Shown in pieces: positions 1 through 21,283 of a DNA stretch of 28,682 nt (the first letter of the stretch is position 1; every line of letters begins with the position of its first letter). Position numbers and translations under genes: made by a program. The notes under the pieces were generated by a model, which did not search any database, was not told the DNA's origin, and was given only the letters and a program-made list of their open reading frames with translations. The stretch spans positions 1-28,682 of the forward strand of contig WBXG01000017.1 of assembly GCA_008932965.1 (NCBI GenBank), in the 5' to 3' direction. The DNA comes from Verrucomicrobiota bacterium. Its GTDB lineage: Bacteria; Verrucomicrobiota; Verrucomicrobiia; Chthoniobacterales; UBA6821.

Positions 1-122
1 AGACTCACATTTTGATTTGGGCAGTATGTACACATACAGCCCTGCATCAAAATGCTCGCCTGCCTTACCCCATCAGCCTTCGCGGCCTCCTCGTCACGAT
101 CAGTATGAAATATCCGGGTTAA
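1..122 (+). mobile_element. Hairpin element copy A (type 1a), 5' end cut by the window edge. Lies in frame inside ispG.
   Basis: Nearly identical to 1053-1174 of copy B. Ends in CACGATCAGTATGAAATATCCGGGTTAA. Translated in the ispG frame as ...[25 protein letters not shown], then continues into IspG sequence. Confidence 0.9.
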
Positions 123-994
123 GTTGGAATCTAGTGGCGCCAGGATGGTCGTTTTTTAGCAGTGATCGGCGAGATTCTCAAAAAATAATGATCAATAATA
201 CCGAGGTTGGTGGTACTTCTCTGGTGCGGGTGGTGATACCGCGTCATTCCCATGAGGCAGTAGCTCCCAAGCTCGCTTTCATGGGAGAATATCAACCCGA
301 ATTCATTTTGGAGGATTTATCACTCATAGAAATGGATCCTCGTTCCGAGGAGGAGATAGCTTTATTGAGCCATGAAAAAGCACCTCGCCTGATTACTGTT
401 CGTGATGGGATTGAGATGAGCCCGATTGCTGCTTTTCGCCTTCTTGCAGCACGTATCCCATCTAGCTATCCCATTTTGCTTAAAGATACTCTCAAGCCGG
501 AAAGCCAGATAACAGAGTCAGAGTTGCATAGAAGAGAAGTTACAAAAAATCTACTTACTGCCTCAACAGTAATTGGGGCCCTTCTGTGTGATGGGATTGG
601 TGATGCTGTTCTCATTCGTGGCGAATCCTCTCCTGAAGCTTCTCTTCGGCTTGCCTATAATATTTTACAATCTGCAGGAGTGCGGATTTTTAAAACGGAT
701 TATGTAGCCTGTCCTTCCTGTGGGCGTACACTTTTTAATCTTCAGGAAACAACAGCACGTATTAAAGCTGCAACAGACCATCTTAAGGGAGTTCGTATTG
801 CTATTATGGGTTGTATTGTTAATGGTCCTGGAGAAATGGCGGATGCCGACTTTGGCTATGTGGGTGGAGCACCCGGAAAAGTGAATCTCTACGTTGGCAA
901 GCAAGCAGTCAAATTTAATATTCCTCAGGAAGAGGCTGTGGAGCAGCTTGTCACCTTGATTCAGGAGCATGGGAAATGGGTAGAAAGAGATTAA
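2..994 (+). CDS. ispG: 4-hydroxy-3-methylbut-2-enyl diphosphate synthase IspG (long form), 5'-truncated by the window edge. The frame runs through hairpin-element copy A (1-122).
   Basis: The C-terminal motifs [20 protein letters not shown] and GCIVNGPGE are typical of IspG/GcpE. The ~200 aa before them fit the extra insert domain of long-form IspG. The N-terminal TIM-barrel part is absent, and the frame stays open to position 2 through the repeat. The stop TAA at 992-994 lies inside the TTAA at the start of copy B. Confidence 0.85.
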
Positions 995-1174
995 CCCGGA
1001 TATTTCATACTGATCTACTACGGAAGCCGGGAACTCAGATGGATGCTGCGTTAGACTCACATTTTGATTTGGGCAGTATGTACACATACAGCCCTGTATC
1101 AAAATGCTCGCCTGCCTTACCCCATCAGCCTTCGCGGCCTCCTCGTCACGATCAGTATGAAACATCCGGGTTAA
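991..1174 (+). mobile_element. Hairpin element copy B (type 1a), full length 184 bp, starting on the ispG stop codon.
   Basis: 5' TTAACCCGGATATTTCATACTGATC and 3' GATCAGTATGAAACATCCGGGTTAA form ~25-nt terminal inverted repeats. The interior hairpin is CATTTTGAT...ATCAAAATG. TTAA is present at both ends. Confidence 0.92.
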
Positions 1175-1243
1175 CCCGCCTATTTCATACCGATTCTGCT
1201 GCGGCTTGCGAACACCTGATAGATACTGCGTCAGTCTCCAACT
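1171..1243 (+). repeat. Hairpin element copy C (type 2), 3'-truncated, abutting copy B through a shared TTAA.
   Basis: TTAACCCGCCTATTTCATACCGATTCTGCTGCGGCTTGCGAACACCTGATAGATACTGCGTCAGTCTC matches the first ~70 nt of copy G (8257-). Confidence 0.8.
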
Positions 1244-1265
1244 TTTTTTAGTCAGAGTTCGATTT

Positions 1266-1898
1266 CTATTTAGGAAAAAACTTTCTAATTTCCTGAAGCA
1301 TACGATGGATGTGGCGATAGCCTTTGACCTTAGAGAGAAGTAGGTAGCTATGCCACGGATCTCCCCATTCTATGATTTCAATGGTGACACGGCGTACCCC
1401 CCACTGGGACATGGCTGTCCGCGTTGGTTTGTAAAGATCGATAGTGTTTGTTCCAGCGAGTGCAAAACCATAATCATCGACAATAAAATTTTCTCCTGTT
1501 GCCTTAATGCGAAACCGAGTTCCAGCTGGCCAACGTGCCCAATCAGCAGCTGCACTGTTGAGCGCTCCATATTTTAAAGGTGTGCCAAGGGCGGAACAAG
1601 CTCCATAACGATGGTGGTCGCGTTCAGAATGAGTGTAGGCTGTTGTACGCACTTTTTGAACAGCAGTACGTGCAAGCGGTTTTTCATATGTTGGAAGTTG
1701 GTGGGCACAACTGCTGAGGAATAATACCGTTGCTACTGCAAGAGATGAAACACCTTGCTGTAGCCTTGTTGGACATTTTGTAATTGCAAATTCACTGTTG
1801 TGATCAATCTCTCTCTTCATAAGAAAGTCTATGTCTGCAAGCATTCCATCATGCTGAAATAACCAATCTGCAACGTGGGAGCAGAGAAGGCTCTGCAT
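1266..1898 (-). CDS. 3D-domain (MltA-like) lipoprotein. Maximal ORF shown; the likely start is the ATG at 1820.
   Basis: The C-terminal half (RTTAYTHSE...NFIVDDYGFALAGTNTIDLY) looks like a 3D domain. The lipobox-like LFLSSC is preceded by a hydrophobic stretch, which fits a start at MKREID (1820) better than 1898. Confidence 0.7.
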   Translation of the reverse strand: MQSLLCSHVADWLFQHDGMLADIDFLMKREIDHNSEFAITKCPTRLQQGVSSLAVATVLFLSSCAHQLPTYEKPLARTAVQKVRTTAYTHSERDHHRYGACSALGTPLKYGALNSAAADWARWPAGTRFRIKATGENFIVDDYGFALAGTNTIDLYKPTRTAMSQWGVRRVTIEIIEWGDPWHSYLLLSKVKGYRHIHRMLQEIRKFFPK

Positions 1899-1906
1899 TC
1901 ATGAAA

Positions 1907-2923
1907 TTATATCGATGAATTATTTGCTGCTACTTGGGCTACGGCACTTGCCACTGTTGTTGCTGCTGCCACAGCAGTAGCTTGTTCAGGAGTGAGTGAA
2001 AGCCCTGGAAGTAAATCTCCTTCGGTTGTTCCGACCCCTTGAATACGACGTTTTTCTTGCCTTTCTTGAGAAATGCGAACGACTTCACGAGCTAAGCCAC
2101 ATTTTTCCATAATACGAATTACATAGGCAGAGGGATCAATTTGCCACCATTTCATTCCGTGAAAAGCAGAGCGAGGAAAAGCATGGTGATTGTTATGCCA
2201 TCCTTCACCCATTGCTAGAATTCCGAAGATAAAATTATTGCGACTTACATCAGTTGTTTCAAAATCCCGGCCACCAAATGTGTGGCAGATAGAATTAACC
2301 GACCAAGTTACATGATGATTGAGAAAGACACGTACAAGTCCACCCCAGAAAAATCCTTGTAATGCTCCAACCTCGAAACCGTGAAGGCCACCACCATGAA
2401 GAGATTCAATCCAACCACACAGTAGGGTGGGTACGAGAAATCCAAGGGCAACCCAAACAAAAAAAGTTTTACTGATAAAAACAATCAGTGGATCTTTGAG
2501 AAGGGGCTTCGCATATTTTTCAATATTAGGCTGGAAATCATCTAGAATCCAACCGACATGAGCATGAAAAAAACTTTTGAGGGGACTATGAGGATCATCC
2601 TCCATATCCGAATTTGCGTGATGTTGAATATGAGTGGCTGCCCAGTTAAGAGCTGGCCCTTGAAGGGTCATGGAGCCTGTGATCAAGAAAAAAGCGCGAA
2701 CCCAGTCGGGTGCATGAAAACTTTTATGGGTTAGCATGCGATGGTAGCCGATGGTGATACCGAAGCCGCCTAGGATAAACATTCCAAGCATGACAAGCAA
2801 GGAGCTCATGTTAACCATTTGATTCCAGAGAAAGTAAATTCCAATCATCGTAGCAATAAGTGGAATCCAAACGACGAATAAAAGAATGGTTTTATTGAGA
2901 GAGGAGGTCTGTGGATGACTCAT
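1907..2923 (-). CDS. Acyl-CoA/acyl-lipid (delta-9 type) fatty acid desaturase.
   Basis: Three histidine boxes (HRMLTH, HIQHHANSD, HNNHH) and N-terminal transmembrane segments. Confidence 0.88.
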   Translation of the reverse strand: MSHPQTSSLNKTILLFVVWIPLIATMIGIYFLWNQMVNMSSLLVMLGMFILGGFGITIGYHRMLTHKSFHAPDWVRAFFLITGSMTLQGPALNWAATHIQHHANSDMEDDPHSPLKSFFHAHVGWILDDFQPNIEKYAKPLLKDPLIVFISKTFFVWVALGFLVPTLLCGWIESLHGGGLHGFEVGALQGFFWGGLVRVFLNHHVTWSVNSICHTFGGRDFETTDVSRNNFIFGILAMGEGWHNNHHAFPRSAFHGMKWWQIDPSAYVIRIMEKCGLAREVVRISQERQEKRRIQGVGTTEGDLLPGLSLTPEQATAVAAATTVASAVAQVAANNSSI

Positions 2924-2980
2924 GATCTTTATAAACTACATCAAAAGATAGGAAATGCAAGGGGAGGTAATGAATCTTTA

Positions 2981-3112
2981 TTAACCTGCATATTTCATAC
3001 CGATCACCTACGAAAGCCGGGAAGCAAGGGTGGATGCTGCGTTGAGCTCGAAGTCTTACCCCATCAGCCTTCGCAGCTCCCTCGTTACGATCAGTATGGA
3101 ATATCTGCTCTA
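2981..3112 (+). mobile_element. Hairpin element copy D (type 1b), with a ~52-bp internal deletion. Sits between the glycosyltransferase stop and the desaturase start.
   Basis: TTAACCTGCATATTTCATACCGATCACCTACGAAAGCCGGGAAG...CCCCATCAGCCTTCGCAGCTCCCTCGTTACGATCAGTATGGAATATCTGCTCTA. The central hairpin is missing relative to copy H. The terminal TA overlaps the stop codon (CTA on +) of the 3110-4210 gene. Confidence 0.85.
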
Positions 3113-4210
3113 GGATATTTTGTTCAAAATAAATGTTGCTATTTTTTGGGTTGCAGAAGAGGTAGCCAAAACTGATAAACACTCTTTCCAATATTTCCAT
3201 GTTGCTGCTTCCTGGGAAAAAACTTCTGCTACAGAAGCAGCAATAGTTTCAGGATAGTGGGCAGCTAAACGACCAATATTATGCCGTTCGATAAGTTCTA
3301 TGTTCCCCTCTTCTTGCCCAGGAACAATATGACTGATTAAAAGTGGACACTTCGCTGCCATAGCTTCATGAACAATGGCACCACCAGCTTTTCCAATATA
3401 GAGATGGTGAGAGGCAAGAAGTTCAGGGATGTTTTTTGTCCAACCTATGAGGCTTAATTGAACCCCATTGAAAATACCTGATTTTTCCAAACTTGCATGC
3501 ATTTCTCTCAAGCGGCCAGTGACGACGGTGATCTCAATATTAGGAATACTTTTCAAGGCCTCTAGGACTTCTAATGTATGTTGGGCTTTGGAAGAGGGGA
3601 GGTAGAGAATTTTCCAAGGAGGTTGTGTTATGATCGGAAGAGAAGGCAACATGGCAAACCGTGGAGCAACGGGGAATCCCAAAACATGAATTTTTTCTCT
3701 AAGAACACCATCTTTAGTTAAGACAGAGGCTGTTTCCTCATCAACAACAATAAAATCGTCACTACCGGCTCGATACCACGCTATATTAATAGCAGTCGAG
3801 TCGGTAATCATTGTGACGAAACGGACCTTGCTTGCTTTATTCCCCTCTTTTCGAAGCTCACGAATGAGAAAAGCATAAAGAGGATAAGTCGAAACAATGA
3901 TGTCAGGCTCGAGTTGATCAATGGTCTTTTGAAGGGCGCGCTTGAGTGGCCCCATCATAAAAAGTGTTCTTTCTAAGGTGCTAGGATGATTCAAAAAATT
4001 AAAGATAACACCCCAAATCATTGGGAATTTATTGATTGCAAGTCGGTATCCTGATTGAAGAGCTTTTGTTAACCAAGGAGTGCTTTGAAGGTAAATATCA
4101 ATGACCGTGACGGCTACTTCCGTACCCTCTTGTAATGCTTCACTAATATTATGGGCTGCTGTGTTATGACCATCACCGAACCCAGCCGTAAGAATAAGAA
4201 CTTTTTTCAT
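3110..4210 (-). CDS. MGDG synthase / UgtP-type (GT28 family) diacylglycerol glycosyltransferase.
   Basis: N-terminal MKKVLILTAGFGDGHNTAA and C-terminal GKAGGAIVHEAMAAKCPLL...PGQEEGN resemble the monogalactosyldiacylglycerol synthase family. Confidence 0.8.
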   Translation of the reverse strand: MKKVLILTAGFGDGHNTAAHNISEALQEGTEVAVTVIDIYLQSTPWLTKALQSGYRLAINKFPMIWGVIFNFLNHPSTLERTLFMMGPLKRALQKTIDQLEPDIIVSTYPLYAFLIRELRKEGNKASKVRFVTMITDSTAINIAWYRAGSDDFIVVDEETASVLTKDGVLREKIHVLGFPVAPRFAMLPSLPIITQPPWKILYLPSSKAQHTLEVLEALKSIPNIEITVVTGRLREMHASLEKSGIFNGVQLSLIGWTKNIPELLASHHLYIGKAGGAIVHEAMAAKCPLLISHIVPGQEEGNIELIERHNIGRLAAHYPETIAASVAEVFSQEAATWKYWKECLSVLATSSATQKIATFILNKIS

Positions 4211-4335
4211 AGAAGAGGCTATGCAACTTTAACCTAAAACCGATAAAGCCTGCATCAGGAATTGGAATTAAAAATAGTTGTTATGGAGATAGCTATTCTG
4301 CATGTTCCATGATATTGGCTACAACATAAATACTT

Positions 4336-4362
4336 ATCCGGATTAACCCGGATTTTCATCAG
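4336..4362 (+). repeat. Hairpin element end remnant (copy E): TIR-to-TIR junction-like ATCCGGATTAACCCGGATTTTCATC.
   Basis: Resembles the copy B/C junction (ATCCGGGTTAACCCGCCTATTTCATAC). It overlaps the last codons and the stop (4343-4345) of the CFA synthase gene. Confidence 0.5.
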
Positions 4363-5611
4363 AAGGAAGCATATAGATGGGAGACTTCAATGTGAGATTT
4401 GTAGGGCGTGAATAGAGCGCCTGTACAGTCGATTTCGAGCGTGTTGCAAATGCGGCCTCACAATAGCAGAGATAGTAAAACCATTTTCTTAAAAAAAGGG
4501 TGGAGCATCCTTGTTTTTGCATTTTAGGTAAGGAGCTGGTAAAGGCAGTGCGCCACAGGGCCATTGTTCGTGCTGCAGAAGGAGTGATATCCTCGCAGTC
4601 TAGCAGGTTGAGATTTCCAGTTTCATTGCAGGCTTCGGTGAGGCGCCTCAAGGAAGGAGTCAATGTTCTTGGAGTAATATATTTTTGAACAAAATCGACG
4701 TTATCACGCAGGAATGGATATTGGTTGTCAGGACAAAGAACTAACTGAAGTACAAGTAATCCTTGTGGTGCAAGTAGGCTTTCTATTTTAGCAAAGAATG
4801 GCTCTAAATCGGGATCATCGGCCAGATCCATCATTTCTATGCAAGCAATTTTGTCAAAGCGTCCTCCCAAATGCTGGTAGTTACAAAAGACAACCTCAAC
4901 GAGATTTGCAACGCCCGCTTTTTCGACATTAATATCAGTTTGCCGATATTGCTCCTCGGAGAGGGTTGTTGCTTGAATACGACATCCATACTTCTGAGCT
5001 GCATAAATTGCAAAGCCACCCCAGCTGCATCCAATATCCAATAAATAATCATGAGCAGTGAGCAGTAATTTTTGGCAAAGGCGTTCCCACTTAGCTTCCT
5101 GAGCTAGCGTGAGACTTTCCGTGGATGTCTTAAAGTAAGCAGCTGAGTAGGCCATGGAGGTACCTAGCCAATGTTGAAAAAAAGAGGTATGGACGTTGCT
5201 TTGGTCATAAAAAAGGGCCTCCTTTTTTTTCTTAGAGCAATGGCGTAAGAGGTGCTGGACTTGATTGGCAATGCCAAGAATATTATGTTTTTCAAGACCT
5301 TGTTCCCTCACTTTTTCTCCAGAGAGGAAGGAAGCATTTAAAAAAAACCATGCAATGACTCCAGTAAGATGATTCGTCTCCCATTCATTGTGGAGATAGG
5401 ATTCAGCAAGACCTATAGAACCGTACAGCACCCAACGACGGTAGAATGCTTCATTCTTAATTTTTATTTCTGCATGCAATTCTTTATCGAGCCCCCCAAA
5501 CATGCGAGATGATCCTCCTGGCATTGTGAGACGTAAGGTGCCTCGACGGCCTCGATGGAGGGTCTCTAAAACAAGATTACGATACAGTTTAGTGAATGCG
5601 GCTTGGAACAT
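4343..5611 (-). CDS. cfa: Cyclopropane-fatty-acyl-phospholipid synthase family methyltransferase.
   Basis: SAM-binding motif LLDIGCSWGGFAIYAAQKYG, with overall length and layout typical of CFA synthases. Confidence 0.85.
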   Translation of the reverse strand: MFQAAFTKLYRNLVLETLHRGRRGTLRLTMPGGSSRMFGGLDKELHAEIKIKNEAFYRRWVLYGSIGLAESYLHNEWETNHLTGVIAWFFLNASFLSGEKVREQGLEKHNILGIANQVQHLLRHCSKKKKEALFYDQSNVHTSFFQHWLGTSMAYSAAYFKTSTESLTLAQEAKWERLCQKLLLTAHDYLLDIGCSWGGFAIYAAQKYGCRIQATTLSEEQYRQTDINVEKAGVANLVEVVFCNYQHLGGRFDKIACIEMMDLADDPDLEPFFAKIESLLAPQGLLVLQLVLCPDNQYPFLRDNVDFVQKYITPRTLTPSLRRLTEACNETGNLNLLDCEDITPSAARTMALWRTAFTSSLPKMQKQGCSTLFLRKWFYYLCYCEAAFATRSKSTVQALYSRPTNLTLKSPIYMLPSDENPG

Positions 5612-5713
5612 GGTTTTTGCCGTGGGGGGATATAGCTGTGAGTTGAAAACTCCAAATTAACCACAAAAAAGAAGAAAGAACACAAAGAAAAATAAGGACA
5701 ATAGAGAATGACA

Positions 5714-5769
5714 AGCCCGGATATTTTATAGCAATCACTTGTGACGATCAGTATGAAATATTCTGACTA
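5714..5769 (+). repeat. Mini hairpin element (copy F, ~56 bp) that keeps both termini only.
   Basis: AAGCCCGGATATTTTATA...GTGACGATCAGTATGAAATATTCTGACTA in the divergent intergenic region between cfa and the GT4 gene. Confidence 0.6.
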
Positions 5770-5808
5770 GATTTCATTTTTCAATGACGATGAGAAAAAA
5801 ATATCATA

Positions 5809-6966
5809 GTGTGGCCCATGCATCCATACCTTCAACAACTACTTCGACCCAGGAAAAAATCCGGATTAGTTTCCCTGCCTCCTCATGGTGAATTTCGAGG
5901 TCATGCTTTAGGAAAAGTTCTTATTGCTTATATAACATGGCCTTTTAGGGAAGGGCACCATGCACCACGAGCTCGTGGGCACACCAATGCTTTTGAAGTC
6001 ATAGCAATGGCTAGCTCCTATCAAGAGCTCGGTTACCAGGTTGAAATTGTCGATTACGATGATAACACTTATATTCCCCCTTCAGATTGTTGTGTCGCTA
6101 TTGATCTGCATGGGCAACTGGAAAGATGGAATTCTTTCTTGCCTGAAACATGCCAGCGTATTCTTCATGCAACAGGGCCCCACTGGTTATTGTGGAATGA
6201 TTCAGAATTAAGGCGTCTCCTTGCAATCCAAGATCGCAAAGGGGTTGCCCTCTTTCCCCAGCGGCAGGTGGCTCCCTCTCATAGTGCCTCTCTTGCAGAC
6301 CAGATTGTTGTGCTAGGTAACAACTACACAATGCAGAGTTTTCAATTTGCAAATAAGCCAATCACTCGTGTTCCTCTCTCTTCTGCTTATGAATTTGATT
6401 ATCCTCAAGAGCGCGATCTTTCTGTTGCAAAGAAGCATTTTCTTTGGGTAGGAAGTTATGGAATGGTGCACAAGGGTCTTGATTTAGTACTCGATGCTTT
6501 TGCAAGGATGCCAGAGCTTTCACTCACCGTCTGTGGACGTCCAGAGAAGGAGAGAGATTTCTTTCGTCTTTATGAAAAAGAATTGCTCCATACCCCCAAT
6601 ATTACTTTTCATGGATGGATCGATATGGCTTCTGATGCCTTTAGCACAATCTCAAAGACCCATGCTGCTATTATCTATCCCTCGAGTGCCGAGGGAGGAG
6701 CTGGATCTGTCATTCATTCCATGCACGCGGGTATGGTTCCTATTTGTACGAGAGAAGCCTCGGTAGATCTTGGGGATTTTGGACTTCTCATTACAGAAGG
6801 TTCAGTAGAAGCGGTCATGGAGGCTGCTCTTGAGTTTTCTTCCTTATCAGATCAAGAGGTTTCAGAGCGTGCTGCTGCCTCCTATGCACATGCTCGTACG
6901 CACCATACACAAGAACTATTTCAAAAAAATTACCGAGACTTCGCAAAACATCTTCTTCATAGATAA
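5809..6966 (+). CDS. Glycosyltransferase family 4 (group 1). GTG start at 5809; alternative ATG at 5818.
   Basis: The C-terminal half (KGLDLVLDAF...YPSSAEGGAGSVIHSMHAGMVPI) has a GT-B/GT4-type layout. Confidence 0.8.
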   Translation: MWPMHPYLQQLLRPRKKSGLVSLPPHGEFRGHALGKVLIAYITWPFREGHHAPRARGHTNAFEVIAMASSYQELGYQVEIVDYDDNTYIPPSDCCVAIDLHGQLERWNSFLPETCQRILHATGPHWLLWNDSELRRLLAIQDRKGVALFPQRQVAPSHSASLADQIVVLGNNYTMQSFQFANKPITRVPLSSAYEFDYPQERDLSVAKKHFLWVGSYGMVHKGLDLVLDAFARMPELSLTVCGRPEKERDFFRLYEKELLHTPNITFHGWIDMASDAFSTISKTHAAIIYPSSAEGGAGSVIHSMHAGMVPICTREASVDLGDFGLLITEGSVEAVMEAALEFSSLSDQEVSERAAASYAHARTHHTQELFQKNYRDFAKHLLHR

Positions 6967-7048
6967 ATGAGGTTTTCTAAGTCCCTATCCCAATAGAGAT
7001 GATCTAGGGTATCTTACTAAATGGCATTCACCCCTGTTCTTCTCAATA

Positions 7049-7963
7049 ATGGAACCTATGGACTCTATTAGCATTATTATCCCAGCCTATAATGCAGCTA
7101 CGACTTTAAAAAAAACACTCGAGTCATGTCTTTCCCAAACAACAGCCCCTCTTGAAATTATTCTAGTTAATGATGGGAGTAGTGATGCGACAGCTTCGGT
7201 TGCAGATTTATTTAAAAATGTGATTCGCTATTTTCATTTGGAAAATGGGGGGGTGTCTCGTGCTAGAAATTATGGGGCCTCGCAGGCAAAGGGCGATTGG
7301 TTGCTCTTTCTTGATGCAGATGATCGATTGCTTTCACAGGCGCTGGAGAAATTACGAGAAGCAGCATTAAAGCAAAAGGTAGGGGTTGCCTATGGCATGG
7401 TTTTGGAACAACGTGAACCTCCAGAACAAGCCCGTCTCAATGGATTTAATTATGCGGCTGGTCAGCCACCCGCAGGATCACAACGCATTTTTTGGAGGAA
7501 TGCTATCATTACTCCTGGCTCAGCTATCGTGAGAAAGAGTCTTCACGAAAAATGTGGCGGCTTTGTAACTGGGTATGAACCGATGGAGGATCGCGATTAT
7601 TGGATCAAGTGTGGAATGCTAGAACCGATCGCTTTTTGTGAAACGGTGGTGCTTGATAAACTATGGCAACCTGCTTCCCATGGTTCCCAACACAGTAAAA
7701 GAATTTATCGGGGGCAGGTGGCACAGCGTGCACTCAAAAACTGGGCTCAGGTAAGAAATATTCCTGCCGACTGGATGCCGCTTGATCGGGAGATTATCAA
7801 ATCAGCACTCGATGAGGCTGTTTGGAGGCGCTCGTACACTATTTTAAGGCCATTGCTTACCGAGGCTCAGGCTCACGGTGTATGGCATTGGAGAGCTTTT
7901 TTGCTCTCGATTCTATTCCCTAGAAAAAATCCGCAATGGATGATGGGGGGCATGGGGAAGTAG
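7049..7963 (+). CDS. Glycosyltransferase family 2.
   Basis: ISIIIPAYNAATTL, ILVNDGSSDAT, RARNYGA and LLFLDADD are classic GT2 motifs. Confidence 0.88.
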   Translation: MEPMDSISIIIPAYNAATTLKKTLESCLSQTTAPLEIILVNDGSSDATASVADLFKNVIRYFHLENGGVSRARNYGASQAKGDWLLFLDADDRLLSQALEKLREAALKQKVGVAYGMVLEQREPPEQARLNGFNYAAGQPPAGSQRIFWRNAIITPGSAIVRKSLHEKCGGFVTGYEPMEDRDYWIKCGMLEPIAFCETVVLDKLWQPASHGSQHSKRIYRGQVAQRALKNWAQVRNIPADWMPLDREIIKSALDEAVWRRSYTILRPLLTEAQAHGVWHWRAFLLSILFPRKNPQWMMGGMGK

Positions 7964-8243
7964 GGGGCATATCTTGTTTGCTTTTTTTCTGTAATTTTTT
8001 GGAATGTCGTAAAATCACATTAAAAAGATGTTCAATGAAGAGAGGATCAAGGTTGTAGCTTTTTGCGAGGGAGGCATGTTTGTTTTTCAATTCTTCTTCT
8101 CGTGCTGGATCATGAATGTTCTGTTTCTCTTGAAGTTTGAGAAATCCAATGATGGAAGAGAGATGATTGCGTCGGGCGAGTTGTTCTATAATGAATGTAT
8201 CGATCTGATCGACCTCGGCTCGGAGCTCTTGGAGTGTTTTCAT
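7920..8243 (-). CDS. Chorismate mutase (AroQ class).
   Basis: LQELRAEVDQIDTFIIEQLARR...DPAREEEL... matches the AroQ-type helical chorismate mutase pattern. It lies downstream of tyrA in the aro operon. Confidence 0.85.
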   Translation of the reverse strand: MKTLQELRAEVDQIDTFIIEQLARRNHLSSIIGFLKLQEKQNIHDPAREEELKNKHASLAKSYNLDPLFIEHLFNVILRHSKKLQKKSKQDMPPTSPCPPSSIADFF

Positions 8244-8256
8244 AAAGATAGCCTGA

Positions 8257-8440
8257 TTAACCCGGATATTTCATACTGATTCTGCTGCGGCTTGCGAACA
8301 CCCGATGGATACTGCGTCAGTCTCGAATTGCTCCTCGGGCAGTATGAAACATACAGCCGTCGTCGCAATCCATCACCTTCCTTGTCTGCATCAGCCTTCG
8401 CGGCCTCCTCGTCACGATCAGTATGAAACATCCGGGTTAA
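8257..8440 (+). mobile_element. Hairpin element copy G (type 2), full length 184 bp, in the tyrA-chorismate mutase intercistronic spacer.
   Basis: TTAACCCGGATATTTCATACTGATTCTGCTGCGGCTTGCGAACACCCGATGG...CATCAGCCTTCGCGGCCTCCTCGTCACGATCAGTATGAAACATCCGGGTTAA. It abuts the tyrA stop (8441-8443) and ends 13 nt from the chorismate mutase start codon (8241-8243). Confidence 0.92.
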
Positions 8441-9160
8441 CTAGGTTAAAGTATGGTGCAGTATCGAAAGCTCTTTCAAAAATTTTTCTCGAACAGAGTG
8501 GGTGTATGGATTGTAGCGGTGCATATCTCCAAAAAGCTCTTCACTGTCTGCTGTAACACTGCGAACCATTTTTTGTAGAAGTTCAAAACTAGGTGTTGAA
8601 AGGATTCCTGGTGGAGTAGTCAGCATCGGGGCTCTTCCAATAAAATGGACTAGGGCCTGCATACTGGCACTTTGCATATCATGCTCTTCTGGAGTAAGAG
8701 AGATGATTTCTAATCCCATATGTTGAAAAATCTCGATCATCTTATGAGCTCTTTCCTCTTGTGGGCTAGTACAAAGCACTATTTTGTGACCACGTGTGCC
8801 TTCTGATTTTAGTATAGAATTAGGACCAAAAAGGGGGTGTATTGCCATGATCGGTTGTTTCTGTGGAAAGAGTTCACTCATGATTTGCATGGGAAATACT
8901 TTTACAGAGCAGGTATCGACAAGAAGAGTGGAAGGGGAAATAATTTTAGCTACGTGTTTACAGCACTCTTGAAATGAAGAGATAGGAACCGCTAAAAGAA
9001 GAACCTCAGTATCTCTTAGCTCCTCTAAGGGAACTAAGCTTACACCCTTGATGAGGCTCGTCTTGAGAATAGCGTCATGGGCCATCACTTTACCATAGGG
9101 TAACAGGAGCTCTGACCAACATTGACCCAAACGTCCAAAACCTATAATTCCAAATCGCAT
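8441..9160 (-). CDS. tyrA: Prephenate/arogenate dehydrogenase.
   Basis: N-terminal Rossmann motif MRFGIIGFGRLGQ, prephenate dehydrogenase-like length, and aro operon context. Confidence 0.82.
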   Translation of the reverse strand: MRFGIIGFGRLGQCWSELLLPYGKVMAHDAILKTSLIKGVSLVPLEELRDTEVLLLAVPISSFQECCKHVAKIISPSTLLVDTCSVKVFPMQIMSELFPQKQPIMAIHPLFGPNSILKSEGTRGHKIVLCTSPQEERAHKMIEIFQHMGLEIISLTPEEHDMQSASMQALVHFIGRAPMLTTPPGILSTPSFELLQKMVRSVTADSEELFGDMHRYNPYTHSVREKFLKELSILHHTLT

Positions 9161-9219
9161 TTTATTTGGGGTGCTATATTTCTATGAATCACTTTTATCT
9201 TAGATTGTTTTTTAATGTA

Positions 9220-10311
9220 CTACTGATTCTGAGCTTTATGGAGCAGGTAATGATCCATCAAAACCAGTGCGGCCATGGCATCGACGATAGGAACTGCACG
9301 TGGCAGGACGCAAGGGTCGTGACGACCTTGAACTGAGATACTGATTTCTTCTTGAGCTACATTGAGTGTCTGTTGCTCCTTGGCAATCGTTGAGACAGGT
9401 TTAAAGGCAACACGAAAAAGGATATCCTCTCCTGTGGAAATGCCTCCTAAGATTCCTCCCGCATGATTGGTTAAGCAGCTCATTTTTTCATTTCGTAAAA
9501 TAAAAGCATCGTTGTGCTCACTTCCAAGTAAGGTTGTCCCTTCAAATCCGGATCCGATTTCAAATCCTTTCACAGCATTAATCCCAAGCATCGCTTTTCC
9601 TAAGTCAGCTGAGAGTTTGTTAAAGACAGGAGCTCCAAGTCCTACTGGAACATGACGCAGGACTCCTTGAATCACCCCACCAACGGAGTCTCCTGTCTGT
9701 TGTACTGATTCAATCAATTCCATCATGGAGGGAGCCATTAAAGGATCAGGGCAGCGCAAAGGGTTGCTTTCAATGGTCTCTGCAGAGACGCTTCGAGGAT
9801 CTATGGTCGTACGTAGTCTCGCTACTTGCTCGACATAGCTTAGAATTTCAATATTGAAATGCTGTTTCAAATATTTTTTGGCAATGGCTCCTGCAGCTAC
9901 ACGGGCCCATGTCTCTCGAGCACTTGCACGACCGCTTCCTCTGAAATCACGACGCCCATATTTTTGCTGGTAGGTGAAATCTGCATGAGAAGGTCGATAG
10001 ACATTTTTGATGGCTTCGTAATCTCCTGGACGACTATCTTCATTATAAGCAAGCAGCAAAATAGGGGTTCCCAATGTATGCCCCTCAAAGACTCCAGAGA
10101 GAATGTGGACCTGATCTCGTTCCTGGCGAGGTGTTGTCAGTGCACTTTGTCCTGGTCTTCTACGATCGCATTCGTGCTGGATCTCCTCAGGCGTGATAGC
10201 CAAACCGGGAGGGCATCCATCGATGATCACTGCCACAGCACCTCCATGTGATTCACCACAGGTAGTAATTTTAAAAAGGTGTCCGAATGTGTTCATTTTT
10301 TTATAATTCAA
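9220..10311 (-). CDS. aroC: Chorismate synthase (alternative start at 10296, MNTFG).
   Basis: NTFGHLFKITTCGESHGG, RPGQSA, RPSHAD and GRHDPCV are AroC signature regions. Confidence 0.93.
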   Translation of the reverse strand: MNYKKMNTFGHLFKITTCGESHGGAVAVIIDGCPPGLAITPEEIQHECDRRRPGQSALTTPRQERDQVHILSGVFEGHTLGTPILLLAYNEDSRPGDYEAIKNVYRPSHADFTYQQKYGRRDFRGSGRASARETWARVAAGAIAKKYLKQHFNIEILSYVEQVARLRTTIDPRSVSAETIESNPLRCPDPLMAPSMMELIESVQQTGDSVGGVIQGVLRHVPVGLGAPVFNKLSADLGKAMLGINAVKGFEIGSGFEGTTLLGSEHNDAFILRNEKMSCLTNHAGGILGGISTGEDILFRVAFKPVSTIAKEQQTLNVAQEEISISVQGRHDPCVLPRAVPIVDAMAALVLMDHYLLHKAQNQ

Positions 10312-10320
10312 AAGGGGGTA

Positions 10321-11799
10321 TCATAGTATCACTTCTTTTAAGGCCTTCAGAACGATTGTATCGTCTATTTCGTGAATGACCGATCCTTGGGTTCTATCAA
10401 CCTTACCAATCTGACTCAATAAAACGGTTCGAATCGCTCTTGAGCCTCTTTTTTTATCATAACGTGTTGCTTCGAGAAGATCATTAGGATTCATGCTGCT
10501 TAGGAGCATGGGATCTAACCCAAATATTTCATTCTGATCACCTGCGCAGACCGGGAAATCAGATGGATGCTGCGTTGAGCTCGAAGTCTTCCTCGGGCAG
10601 TAGGGACTCATACAGCCGTCGTTAGACTTCATCACTCGCCTGGCCCCATCAGCCTTCGCAGCCTCCTCGTTACGATTAGTATGAAATATCCGGGTTAATT
10701 TGAATTGATGAAAAAAATCAACGATCATGTCTGCTTCCGTTTTGGAGCAGATTCCTAGGAGTTCACTGATTTTGAGTTCGACTAATATTCCTAACCCTAC
10801 GGCATATCCATGCATGATTTTATATTGAGAAACCTGCTCCATAGCATGCCCTATGGTGTGACCAAAATTTAAAATCATCCGTTCACCAGATTCTTTTTCA
10901 TCCTTGTGAACAAGAGCCATCTTCTGTTCTACCGCCTTGATAACTACCCCCTCTAGCAAATCAAGATCTGGAATCAAAAGTTGGGCAAGATGTTCTTGTA
11001 CGAAAAAAAATTGATCTCGATCATTTGTTAGGAATATTTTAATGGCTTCCATGAGGCCATTGATCATCTGTTCTTGGGAGAGTGTTGTTAAAAAATTAAG
11101 GTCGGCAATCACTGCTGTGGGTTGCCAAAACGCCCCAATGAGATTCTTTCCATAAATCGTATTAATAGCTGTTTTTCCACCAATACTGCTGTCAACCATT
11201 GCAAGTAACGTTGTTGGTATCTGAATGTAGGGAATTCCTCGCATGTAGGTCGCTGCAACAAAGCCTGCAAGATCCCCAACGACTCCCCCTCCTAGGGCCA
11301 CGATCATTGTATTACGTCCACATTGATGCCGGAGCATTTCACCTTCAAGGCGTTCTTTTACCCTGCTGTTTTTTGATTTTTCTCCAGCTCGGAATGAGAG
11401 GAGCTGGGCCTGAAAACCACGCTGGAGTAGTTTTTCAAGCAACGCATCACCATACAGTTTTTTGACATGATGATCCGTAATTATGACCACCTTCTGCTCT
11501 AGTGAGAGAAAGGTTTCTAAGCTCTCTAGCCCGGATATTTCATGCTGATCACCTACGGAAGCCGGGAAGTTAGATGGATGCTGCGTTGATCTCGAAGTCT
11601 TCCTCGGGCAGTGTGTATACACACTGCCCGAGGAAGACTTCATCGCTCGCCTTGCCCCATCAGCCTTCGCGGCCTCCTCATCACGATCAGTATGAAATAT
11701 CCGGGTTATGATATCCCTGCCGATCAGGATCGGATACTGATAACCGGGCGCAGAGGGAAGTTCTAGATAGAGTTGTTGGGGGGTAGTTTGATGTTTCAT
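10321..11799 (-). CDS. aroB: 3-dehydroquinate synthase carrying two in-frame 60-codon hairpin-element insertions (492 aa; 372 aa without them).
   Basis: AroB motifs are intact (GGGVVGDLAGF, DSSIGGKTAIN, NFGHTIGHAME, HGYAVGLG). Two segments, [11 protein letters not shown]...DQHEISGL and TRIFHTNRNEE...DQNEIFGL, are translations of element copies I and H. Confidence 0.9.
   Translation of the reverse strand: MKHQTTPQQLYLELPSAPGYQYPILIGRDIITRIFHTDRDEEAAKADGARRAMKSSSGSVYTHCPRKTSRSTQHPSNFPASVGDQHEISGLESLETFLSLEQKVVIITDHHVKKLYGDALLEKLLQRGFQAQLLSFRAGEKSKNSRVKERLEGEMLRHQCGRNTMIVALGGGVVGDLAGFVAATYMRGIPYIQIPTTLLAMVDSSIGGKTAINTIYGKNLIGAFWQPTAVIADLNFLTTLSQEQMINGLMEAIKIFLTNDRDQFFFVQEHLAQLLIPDLDLLEGVVIKAVEQKMALVHKDEKESGERMILNFGHTIGHAMEQVSQYKIMHGYAVGLGILVELKISELLGICSKTEADMIVDFFHQFKLTRIFHTNRNEEAAKADGARRVMKSNDGCMSPYCPRKTSSSTQHPSDFPVCAGDQNEIFGLDPMLLSSMNPNDLLEATRYDKKRGSRAIRTVLLSQIGKVDRTQGSVIHEIDDTIVLKALKEVIL
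10515..10698 (+). mobile_element. Hairpin element copy H (type 1b), 184 bp, inside aroB (C-terminal third), in frame.
   Basis: CTAACCCAAATATTTCATTCTGATCACCTGCGCAGACCGGGAAATCAGATGGATGCTGCGTTGAGCTCGAAGTCTTCC...CCCCATCAGCCTTCGCAGCCTCCTCGTTACGATTAGTATGAAATATCCGGGTTAA. No stop codon in the aroB frame. Confidence 0.92.
11526..11709 (+). mobile_element. Hairpin element copy I (type 1b), 184 bp, inside aroB (after residue ~31), in frame.
   Basis: CTAGCCCGGATATTTCATGCTGATCACCTACGGAAGCCGGGAAGTTAGATGGATGCTGCGTTGATCTC...CCCCATCAGCCTTCGCGGCCTCCTCATCACGATCAGTATGAAATATCCGGGTTAT. No stop codon in the aroB frame. Confidence 0.92.
11594..11641. repeat. Perfect 48-bp palindrome at the centre of copy I.
   Basis: GAAGTCTTCCTCGGGCAGTGTGTATACACACTGCCCGAGGAAGACTTC equals its own reverse complement (checked base by base). 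The homologous region of copy L is only an imperfect hairpin. Confidence 0.95.
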
Positions 11800-16759: not shown

Positions 16760-17617
16760 ATGTCAGCCTCCTCTCTAACGCTCTTAGCACCAGCAAAAAT
16801 CAATCTCTCGCTGCAGCTCTTAAACAAAAGAGCTGATGGATATCATGAAATTGAGACGTTGATGGCACCTATTACTCTGGCTGATGAGCTTGAAATTACC
16901 TGCACTCATACTGCTGCTCCCATTCCAATAACACTCACCTGCAATGATCCTTCCCTGCCACTTGGAGAAAAGAACCTATGCGTACAAGCTGCTCATGCTT
17001 TTCAGAAAGCAACTGGTATTCAAGAGCCAGTTTCTATCACCCTGTTAAAAAAAATCCCATATGGAGCAGGGCTAGGTGGGGGGAGTAGTGATGCAGCTGC
17101 GGTGCTACAAGGTATGAATGCTCTTTTCAAAAAGCCTTTAGTCGAGGAGGAGCTGCATCTCCTCTCCGTATCACTAGGATCAGATGTCCCCTTTTTTTTA
17201 CAAAGGAAACCTGCATGGTGCCGTGGCCGTGGTGAAATTCTCTCTGAAGCAGCGCCTCTTCCAGCATGGAACCTGCTTCTAATCAAGCCTCCCTTTTCCG
17301 TAGATACCACTTGGGCTTACCAGCACTGGGACAAAAAAAAGTGGACCCCAAAAGAGCCAATGACTCACGATGAGATCACCCTTTTCAATCATCTCGAGCT
17401 TCCTGTTTTTGAAAAGTACCTTCTCCTTCCAGTCTTAAAAGAGTGGTTATTAAAGCTACCTGAAGTAATCACAGTTTGGATGAGTGGCTCTGGATCAACA
17501 ATGGTGGCACTGTTAAACCAAGAGCTCTCTTGGGAGCAGAATCAAAGACTCCAAACAACGATAAGAACTACTTTTGGAGAGTATTTTTGGATTAAAAGTG
17601 TCACTTTTCTAACTTAA
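16760..17617 (+). CDS. ispE: 4-diphosphocytidyl-2-C-methyl-D-erythritol kinase (start chosen at MSASS; the maximal ORF starts at 16709 inside a repeat remnant).
   Basis: LLAPAKINLSLQLLNKRADGYHEIETLM and PYGAGLGGGSSDAAAV are GHMP-kinase IspE motifs. The stop TAA at 17615-17617 lies in the TTAA at the start of copy K. Confidence 0.9.
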   Translation: MSASSLTLLAPAKINLSLQLLNKRADGYHEIETLMAPITLADELEITCTHTAAPIPITLTCNDPSLPLGEKNLCVQAAHAFQKATGIQEPVSITLLKKIPYGAGLGGGSSDAAAVLQGMNALFKKPLVEEELHLLSVSLGSDVPFFLQRKPAWCRGRGEILSEAAPLPAWNLLLIKPPFSVDTTWAYQHWDKKKWTPKEPMTHDEITLFNHLELPVFEKYLLLPVLKEWLLKLPEVITVWMSGSGSTMVALLNQELSWEQNQRLQTTIRTTFGEYFWIKSVTFLT

Positions 17618-17799
17618 CCCGCATATTTCACACCGATCTACTACGGAAGCCGGGAAGTCAGATGGATGCTGCGTTAGACTCACATTTTGATTTGAGCAGT
17701 ATATACACATACAGCCCTGCATCAAAATGCTCGCCTGCCTTGTACTAATAAGCTTTGCACGGCGCCTCATGACACTTCAGTATGAAACATCCGGGTTAA
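17614..17799 (+). mobile_element. Hairpin element copy K (type 1a, diverged 3' module), 186 bp, between the convergent ispE and exonuclease genes.
   Basis: TTAACCCGCATATTTCACACCGATCTACTACGGAAGCCGGGAAGTCAGATGGATGCTGCGTTAGACTCACATTTTGATTTGAGCAG...CTTCAGTATGAAACATCCGGGTTAA. The left TTAA holds the ispE stop and the right TTAA holds the exonuclease stop on the other strand. Confidence 0.9.
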
Positions 17800-20356: not shown

Positions 20357-20460
20357 TTAACGCGCATATTTCATACTGCCCAATCACAATTCGAGACCAA
20401 CGCAGTAATGAGGAGCTTTCCACAAGCCGTAATAGATTTAGTGTGAAATATCTGGGCTAG
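20357..20460 (-). mobile_element. Hairpin element copy M (type 3), reverse orientation, 104 bp with an 80-bp internal deletion.
   Basis: Its reverse complement, CTAGCCCAGATATTTCACACTAAATCTATTACGGCTTGTGGAAAGCTCCTCATTACTGCGTTGGTCTCGAATTGTGATTGGGCAGTATGAAATATGCGCGTTAA, follows J3 up to GGGCAGTA and then jumps to the 3' TIR. Its end encodes the last 7 codons and the stop of the 20438-21283 gene. Confidence 0.85.
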
Positions 20461-21283
20461 TTTCTTGATGCTTTTTCTTTTGAAGTAGAACCCACAACCA
20501 AGCTCCACCAAAGTTCTCATCACGCTCTGCACGAATTAATTTTTCAAATCGGTGGAGTAATTGAATGACAAGATCCTCCGTGTGATCCCAGGAAACCGCT
20601 TCAAAAGGACCTCCAGCTCCCTGTTCCATATTTGTTCCCATATCGTAGAGTAAAAAACCTTCAGGTTTCAGAACACGTGCATGCTCTCTCATCATTGCTT
20701 CCAGATCGAAAGCATGATCCACGCAATTGGTGTAGAGCATATCAATCGAATTCTCTTTCTCCTGAAGCTTCATAAAATCACCTGCACGAACAATACGGTT
20801 GTCAGGACCAGGATTGAGATCGATTCCGTAAGCATTAAAAAACCCTAGATCGTGTAATACTTCCACTTCTGTTCCCTGGCGGGCACCTGAGCAGAGAATC
20901 ACCGCATCTCGTGAAAGGAGCTGTGTCAAATGTTTGAAGCGGCTGTAAAATTTCAAACGATACTCGCAAATATCCCAATTACTAAATCCTCCTTTCATCT
21001 TGAGCATTTCATCAAGCTTCTGCTGCTGATGTGTCACATATTCGTCGTAGCTGGAATAGTCCCTTTTGAGAAGATCACCCTCTTTTTCCGATTTCCAACC
21101 TCCTTCACCATGGTGCTTGAGACGGACCTCATGCTTATCACGCTCATGTTGATAATTCGCATCCTGCATCTTCCGAAGTTTGCGAATGTATCCATACCCT
21201 CCTGGAATAACGAGATGCAGGGCTGTTTTGAACCAGAACCGTGGATAAAATGAGGGAAGAAGCGTGTGTCGAAGGTAGGCCAT
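20438..21283 (-). CDS. Class I SAM-dependent methyltransferase whose C-terminus is encoded by element copy M.
   Basis: Rossmann-like ILCSGARQGTEVEVL...GIDLNP and LYTNCVDHAFD...LKPEGFLL. The terminal SPDISH-stop is a translation of AGCCCAGATATTTCACACTAA (element TIR). Confidence 0.75.
   Translation of the reverse strand: MAYLRHTLLPSFYPRFWFKTALHLVIPGGYGYIRKLRKMQDANYQHERDKHEVRLKHHGEGGWKSEKEGDLLKRDYSSYDEYVTHQQQKLDEMLKMKGGFSNWDICEYRLKFYSRFKHLTQLLSRDAVILCSGARQGTEVEVLHDLGFFNAYGIDLNPGPDNRIVRAGDFMKLQEKENSIDMLYTNCVDHAFDLEAMMREHARVLKPEGFLLYDMGTNMEQGAGGPFEAVSWDHTEDLVIQLLHRFEKLIRAERDENFGGAWLWVLLQKKKHQETSPDISH

Follow-up and report, generated by a model that had tools for sequence, protein, structure and literature searches.

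The classical examples of palindromic repeats that have invaded housekeeping genes in frame come from Rickettsia, and they are associated with the relaxed selection that accompanies intracellular life. The repeats concerned, the Rickettsia palindromic elements (RPEs), were reportedly described by Ogata et al. in 2000 (Science 290:347) and in 2002 (Genome Res 12:808). According to one account, RPEs are short palindromic repeats that sit in frame in unrelated housekeeping genes and leave the open reading frame (ORF) intact, their insertions lie where the fold of the protein is predicted to accommodate them, and copies are also found in intergenic DNA (PMC10969869). Here, we describe a comparable case in a metagenome contig of 28,682 nt assigned to Verrucomicrobiota (WBXG01000017.1; the whole stretch is hereafter called the window), where a miniature inverted-repeat transposable element (MITE) has inserted in frame into ispG, the gene of an essential iron-sulphur (Fe-S) enzyme of isoprenoid synthesis. 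From the sequences presented below we infer with considerable confidence that this in-frame insert is read through and that the resulting enzyme of 655 aa is most likely active.

Like the RPEs, this MITE is palindromic and highly repeated, and it lies in frame in ispG and aroB, where it keeps the ORF and would add a peptide. It differs from them in several respects. Searches of NCBIfam, Pfam and Rfam gave no sequence relation to RPEs, a result that does not include a direct comparison with RPE DNA. The host is an uncultured freshwater Verrucomicrobiota from lake metagenomes and not an obligate intracellular alphaproteobacterium. Furthermore, the MITE has inverted ends of 25 nt, a demonstrable TTAA duplication and an exact net length of 180 nt, and either orientation is open, so that two alternative peptides can be encoded. 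By sequence the element is not an RPE; the phenomenon is RPE-like, in a phylum and with a repeat family that are both new to it.

Other bacterial MITEs, such as the Correia elements of Neisseria and QMITE1 and QMITE2 of Coxiella burnetii, are small, transposase-less sequences with inverted repeats that occur in many copies and duplicate their target site. They are located close to genes or within them, where they occasionally become fused in frame or contribute a stop codon or C-terminal residues (PMC5896051, PMC10969869). While the Coxiella QMITEs found in functional genes are located at 3' ends only (PMC5896051, PMC10969869), the insertions described here are internal to essential enzymes (ispG and aroB), at a repeat density of 6.9% of a 28.7-kb contig.

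Filled and empty alleles of ispG

The window is an entire metagenome contig (Joint Genome Institute (JGI) 3300009164, Ga0114975_10000538) and provides no upstream sequence of its own, because it begins inside a repeat copy, which we call copy A. Copy A (1..122, + strand) consists of the right-hand 122 nt of the 184-nt MITE and encodes the last 39 of 60 extra codons, while the missing 62 nt fall beyond the contig start. It is 98% identical to window 1053-1174, and positions 64-184 of the nhmmer model of the element match window 2-122. In its right TTAA (119..122, + strand), TTA is the codon for Leu280 and the last A opens Ser281. The 3' part of ispG (2..994, + strand) is made up of the 39 element codons followed by 291 IspG codons and ends in the stop codon TAA at 992-994. 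These 291 codons represent the A* insert domain and the 4Fe-4S B domain.

The sequence-only reading of the window had proposed that copy A is read through in the ispG frame, that the N-terminus of IspG is missing, and that the gene continues upstream of the element in the same frame with its N-terminal domain. We found that the frame from position 2 is open to 994. The translation matched the Pfam family GcpE (PF04551) with an E-value of 5.4e-37 over profile positions 204-342 only, leaving the TIM-barrel half absent, and its residues 40-330 aligned with 98% identity to residues 280-570 of P0001, a 570-aa IspG from a related contig (L001, JGI 3300081888). To reach the upstream half, we used as a proxy a scaffold from ENA (ERZ28593679, scaffold_3195, 12,602 nt; L165), which was retrieved together with L166 and L167 by a look-up of the neighbouring 210-aa protein. 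L165 is colinear with window 1-11252 at 99.48% identity without gaps, has zero mismatches to window 1-1096, and reaches 1350 nt beyond the window start. There, copy A is complete (L165 11131-11314) and ispG is one uninterrupted ORF of 655 codons, which comprises the TIM barrel, the 60-codon insert and the A*/B domains. The TIM-barrel part ends in ...KIERKEEREEV, after which the insert begins, and the C-terminal part is identical to that of the window. The gene therefore continues as had been proposed: no stop or frame change precedes copy A in L165, and the TIM barrel is present in the same frame. The 655-aa product scored 459 bits against the ispG model TIGR00612 (cut-off 280) and matched PF04551 with an E-value of 3.7e-124.

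L001 is 98.2% identical to window 119-1118 (1000 nt) and bears an empty ispG allele. A BLASTP alignment of the 655-aa protein with the empty-allele product P0001 contained a single gap of 60 residues and nothing else. At the nucleotide level, the empty site in L001 reads gaagaagtc TTAA gttggaat and the filled site in L165 reads gaggaagtc TTAA cccgg...ccggg TTAA gttggaat. As a TTAA that is single in L001 is present twice in L165, the element was inserted at TTAA with duplication of this target and a net gain of 180 nt; duplication of TTAA (4 bp) or of TA (2 bp) would have resulted in an identical sequence. The target lies in the register GTC-TTA-AGT, corresponding to Val279-Leu280-Ser281 in the numbering of the 570-aa protein. 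The insert is likewise missing from orthologues whose N-terminal half is 87-89% identical. Since both L001 and these more distant orthologues are without it, the empty state is ancestral and the insertion is young.

These alleles are consistent with the following course of events. The host is a freshwater Verrucomicrobiota population, probably Chthoniobacterales-like, and the invader a non-autonomous, hairpin-forming MITE that inserts at TTAA and duplicates it. Copy A entered GTC-TTA-AGT in the variable linker that leads from the TIM barrel to A*. As copy A lies in a stop-free register, the ribosome would read straight through it. Copy A is nearest to copy B, located 870 nt downstream in the same orientation. 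The two share 95% identity over their full length; the left 62 nt match at 89% and the right 122 nt at 98-99%.

We considered whether the filled allele might be an artefact of metagenome assembly, in which the assembler made a chimeric join or collapsed a repeat. The window contig and L167 do both break within the repeat, 8 nt apart, and 14 mismatches to L165 are clustered further downstream in the window, in a repeat copy named C, which suggests mixed repeat variants. Still, both junctions in L165 fall on a TTAA of which the empty allele has just one, as expected from transposition and not from misassembly, and the right junction of the filled site is present in the window contig, in L165 and in L167, which are three independent assemblies. 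An assembly artefact is therefore very improbable.

Several other searches were aimed at sequence beyond the window start. An exact look-up of the partial IspG product had no match, and a protein search with the N-terminal half of IspG plus the insert recovered no near-identical fragment except P0001. The IspG relatives in metagenome-assembled genomes (MAGs) of Chthoniobacterales and Spartobacteria were at most 72% identical. A scan of the GTDB representative genomes with the IspG fragment likewise returned only relatives of at most 72% identity, and the repeat end motif was present at 0 of the 80 loci. An exact 23-mer of the filled right junction had 0 matches in a scan of JGI metagenome contigs. 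This miss is odd, as the JGI source contig itself carries the junction some 100-119 nt from its end; coverage of the contig scan may have been incomplete, or contig ends may have been skipped.

Anatomy and reading frames of the repeat element

The element measures 184 nt including both flanking TTAAs, which is the modal length among copies, and each insertion adds 180 nt, or 60 codons. Its terminal inverted repeats, TTAACCCGGATATTTCATACTGATC and GATCAGTATGAAATATCCGGGTTAA, are 25 nt long and 100% complementary; an autonomous relative would be expected to have TTAACCCGGATATTTCA ends. A 21-nt end motif (up to 3 mismatches allowed) was found 18 times in the window compared to 0.00 times in 100 shuffles, and nhmmer identified 15 copies or fragments there, which cover the 6.9% given above. 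When 82 metagenome loci were added, the total rose to 294 copies or fragments. Exact occurrences of the end motif were spread over several JGI metagenome projects and more than 82 contigs, none of them from the same species as the window. Pairing of the ends revealed two size classes, one of ~184 nt (50 pairs) and one of ~280 nt (35 pairs). The length of the larger class minus 4 is likewise divisible by three.

TTAA flanked both sides in 33 of the 67 full-length copies. The other flanks were mostly CTAG, CTAA or TTAG (YTAR) on one or both sides, and a few fell outside YTAR (TGAA, TTGA, TTAT, TTAC, TTTA and GTAA), so that TA is not strictly invariant. TTAA or YTAR targeting is known from IS5-family and IS630/Tc1-mariner-type insertion sequences and from the eukaryotic piggyBac, and the flanks of this MITE represent a similar kind of target.

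Complete copies are stop-free solely in the register that has TTA as a codon (frame 0), and this holds on both strands; the remaining four registers contain 1-8 stops each, including the TAA of TTAA. Among the 28 canonical 184-nt copies in the window and the 82 loci, frame 0 was open in 18 on the plus strand and 22 on the minus strand. The other frames were open in 0-1 of these copies, and shuffled sequence was open in 7.4% of trials. Because frame 0 is open on both strands, about one third of the TTAAs within genes can take up the element in either orientation with the ORF intact.

The sole ORF in the element is the 60-codon read-through, and there is no transposase gene; mobilisation would take place in trans, through a separate transposase. 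In 684 kb of related contigs, no transposase gene lay between inverted ends, and the end pairs located 0.8-4 kb apart enclosed ordinary host genes (such as murA, an ABC ATPase, a recJ-like and a priA-like gene). An ORF at window 20438-21283, between two end-like motifs, was evaluated as a transposase and ruled out, as it encodes a methyltransferase.

The element peptide had no Pfam or NCBIfam match in either orientation at E-values up to 10. Querying 5.8 billion proteins with it yielded only "hypothetical proteins" of 45-105 aa from three MAG lineages. Dozens of such "hypothetical proteins" (P0319-P0369, with the prefixes DVB29_, QE493_ and K9M81_, from Verrucomicrobiota MAGs) are ORFs called on repeat copies. 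No publication on this repeat, on SRR5818191 or on the peptide motif was found in open-access literature text.

The peptide data bear on the possibility that the 60-aa module was co-opted and is maintained by positive selection, perhaps as a loop for interaction or regulation. It would fit with such a role that open frames are far more common in the family, in both orientations, than expected by chance, and that the same peptides recur across many unrelated proteins. Conversely, the peptide resembles no Pfam or NCBIfam family, the same copies also occur between genes, and the copy in ispG is young and missing from close relatives. Open frames are equally well explained by survival bias, since only non-disruptive insertions persist. 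We consider co-option to be highly improbable.

The whole element folds as a long hairpin in RNA or single-stranded DNA (-77.3 kcal/mol, z = -8.2). Such a compact, strongly structured RNA might be taken for an intron-like insert, and an intein-like insert could be removed after translation, so that the mature enzyme would in either case be wild type. Intein splicing needs a Cys, Ser or Thr nucleophile and a terminal His-Asn. The insert reads LTRIF...YEISG and is followed by a Leu, so both features are absent. Moreover, at 184 nt the element is far too small for a group I or II intron, it had no match in Rfam, and the same element is present in intergenic DNA too. Excision after transcription or translation is therefore extremely improbable.

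The filled ispG is most likely functional

IspG/GcpE proteins with three domains (A-A*-B) occur in plants, Chlamydiae, Bacteroidetes and Verrucomicrobia (Pfam PF04551, PF26540). The TIM barrel, A* insert and Fe-S domain of the host ispG align with such orthologues; it differs from them in an extra segment of 60 residues at the A/A* boundary that was present in no orthologue of the searches. The sequence-only reading had suggested an alignment to long-form orthologues to place the insertion relative to A*. In an alignment of 35 IspG sequences, the insertion fell at this boundary, in the most gap-rich and unconserved block, which extends from the end of the TIM barrel to the start of A*. AlphaFold modelling of the empty allele gave a mean predicted local distance difference test score (pLDDT) of 81.9, with residues 276-281 forming one of only three segments below 50. 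The insertion site is thus predicted to be compatible with the protein fold.

The Fe-S motifs ACPSCGRT and GCIVNGPGE are intact in the window translation and lie within invariant alignment columns. Filled and empty ispG differ by 20 synonymous and 10 non-synonymous changes, giving a ratio of non-synonymous to synonymous substitution rates (dN/dS) of 0.146, with values of 0.07 for the N-terminal and 0.27 for the C-terminal half. Neither a stop nor a frameshift occurs across the 655 codons of the L165 gene. An intact ispE on the same contig indicates that the methylerythritol phosphate (MEP) pathway is in use. Taken together with the position of the insert, these sequence features suggest that a 655-aa IspG with an extra loop of 60 residues is tolerated and most likely still active. 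Because the element is inherently open in frame 0, the open frame of ispG is by itself not improbable; the informative point is the insertion in an essential gene, and its persistence.

Alternatively, ispG could be a young pseudogene, with isoprenoids being supplied through another ispG copy, another pathway or a partner organism. Three observations are compatible with recent loss of function: the inherent openness of the element means that an open frame alone is no sign of selection, the insertion is recent enough to be missing from the 98.2%-identical L001, and the dN/dS of the C-terminal half exceeds that of the N-terminal half (0.27 versus 0.07). On the other hand, 655 codons without disruption in L165, the identity of the window and L165 over window 1-1096, the intact Fe-S ligand motifs, an overall dN/dS of 0.15, the intact ispE on the same contig and an insertion site in a variable linker all argue for a gene in use, and two protein searches gave no other close ispG of this lineage. 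We therefore regard a pseudogene as unlikely and read the filled ispG as a gene that probably still encodes an active enzyme.

Several points weigh against an active, read-through IspG or against parts of the proposed mechanism. The upstream half of the filled ispG is known from L165 only, which comes from another sample, and in short-read metagenome assemblies the interior of a repeat may represent several copies merged into a consensus. The left 62 nt of copy A come from this one assembly, and they match copy B less closely than the right 122 nt do. It is possible that the chimeric IspG is poorly expressed or has no activity. The stable hairpin of the insert could hinder translation or invite cleavage by RNase III. 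A second ispG copy elsewhere in the genome is possible. The dN/dS value integrates the whole divergence between the alleles, which is longer than the time since the insertion. Finally, no autonomous element with these ends was found in the 684 kb of related contigs.

Repeat copies flanking ispG

We next turn to the other copies around ispG. According to the sequence-only reading, the gene had been hit three times, in its interior (copy A), on its stop codon (copy B), and by a truncated copy in tandem (copy C). All three copies were recovered as described, and the count of three proved too low, as related contigs contain further copies upstream of the start codon.

Copy B (991..1174, + strand) is a complete 184-nt MITE located directly after the ispG coding sequence (nhmmer score of 196.6 bits). 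It has perfect inverted ends of 25 nt and a TTAA on each side, and its left TTAA (991-994) holds the ispG stop (GAT TAA, with TAA at 992-994). It probably entered a TTAA composed of the last T of the GAT codon and the TAA stop. As the duplication of this TTAA kept the stop codon, the protein would have remained unchanged. Copy B is present at the same site in L001 and L165. In L001, it contains an extra GC-rich internal segment of 80 nt (2773-2852) that the copy in the window lacks.

Copy C (1171..~1243, + strand) is a 5' fragment of ~72 nt that matches positions 2-80 of the nhmmer model of the element. It belongs to a second subfamily (type 2), represented by window 8257-8440, being 89% identical to 8252-8327, and it has the TTAA at 1171-1174 in common with copy B. 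L001 has a full-length type-2 copy in its place. Synteny between the window and L001 stops inside copy C (~1234-1243; L001 2970-3110). Beyond this breakpoint, L001 encodes a ketoacyl-synthase, and the window contains a convergent gene named after a 3D domain. The end of synteny is a rearrangement breakpoint within the repeat. Copy C is probably the remnant of a later insertion into the right TTAA of copy B that was subsequently cut by the rearrangement. The window and L165 differ at 59 positions in total, of which 14 are concentrated in 37 nt within copy C (window 1191-1227). This clustering suggests either subfamily conversion or assemblers mixing repeat variants.

The convergent gene (1266..1898, - strand) is taken from the ORF list; it encodes the 210-aa protein mentioned above and is a "3D-domain protein" per one source. 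Copies B and C occupy most of the spacer between ispG and this gene. Additional repeat copies were found just upstream of the ispG start, at L165 12280-12602 (reverse strand) and L001 537-813. Among these, a long-form copy stops ~50 nt short of the ATG, and the tail of a second copy is present as well, so that the promoter region was invaded too. A promoter and terminator scan of window 1-1400 performed no better than on shuffled sequences.

Other genes containing the element

Across the window and the related contigs, at least 15 copies lie in frame inside long, real-looking ORFs. By sequence resemblance, the hosts include orotidine monophosphate decarboxylase (pyrF), IspD, TrmD, a penicillin-binding protein, a GT2/deacetylase and an ABC binding protein. 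A check of these other in-frame hosts against a profile library covered the aroB of the window only. This gene (10321-11799, - strand) encodes 492 aa and contains two complete copies in frame, at 10515-10698 and 11526-11709. They are read in the opposite element orientation, and the product still passes TIGR01357. We examined P0260, a 433-aa AroB, as a possible allele missing one insert; this was ruled out, as it merely reflects a shorter start call.

A repeat copy also lies in frame within an ORF resembling an IS30-family transposase (L110 922-1105), again by sequence resemblance. Here, a mobile element itself appears to have been invaded by this MITE.

A complete copy at window 17614-17799 sits precisely at the junction of two convergent genes, ispE and an RNase T-like gene. 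The ispE stop (TAA, 17615-17617) lies in the left TTAA, and the stop of the RNase T-like gene, the reverse complement of 17796-17798, lies in the right TTAA. Since both stops are within TTAAs, they must have overlapped in one palindromic TTAA before the insertion, and the duplication kept both.

Implications

Compared to in-frame repeats as they are known from Rickettsia, the ispG locus provides a molecularly cleaner case, with clearly delimited inverted ends, a duplicated TTAA and, for the gene of an essential Fe-S enzyme, a filled and an empty allele that are ~2% apart. It also represents a natural experiment on how much extra sequence is tolerated by the A/A* linker of a three-domain IspG. 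There are practical consequences as well. The repeat breaks metagenome assemblies, yields spurious "hypothetical proteins" in MAG annotations, and can cause intact genes to be mistaken for partial genes or pseudogenes.

A TTAA target, a net length of 60 codons and a TTA register that is stop-free in both orientations raise the question of whether the family evolved as a "coding-compatible" transposon. We put this forward tentatively, as an idea that is possible and still rather doubtful. If true, it would mean that colonisation of essential coding sequence is possible in a gene-dense, free-living bacterium, and that protein invasion of the RPE type is a general strategy beyond obligate intracellular bacteria. 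Core enzymes would then keep acquiring new surface loops from such a family.

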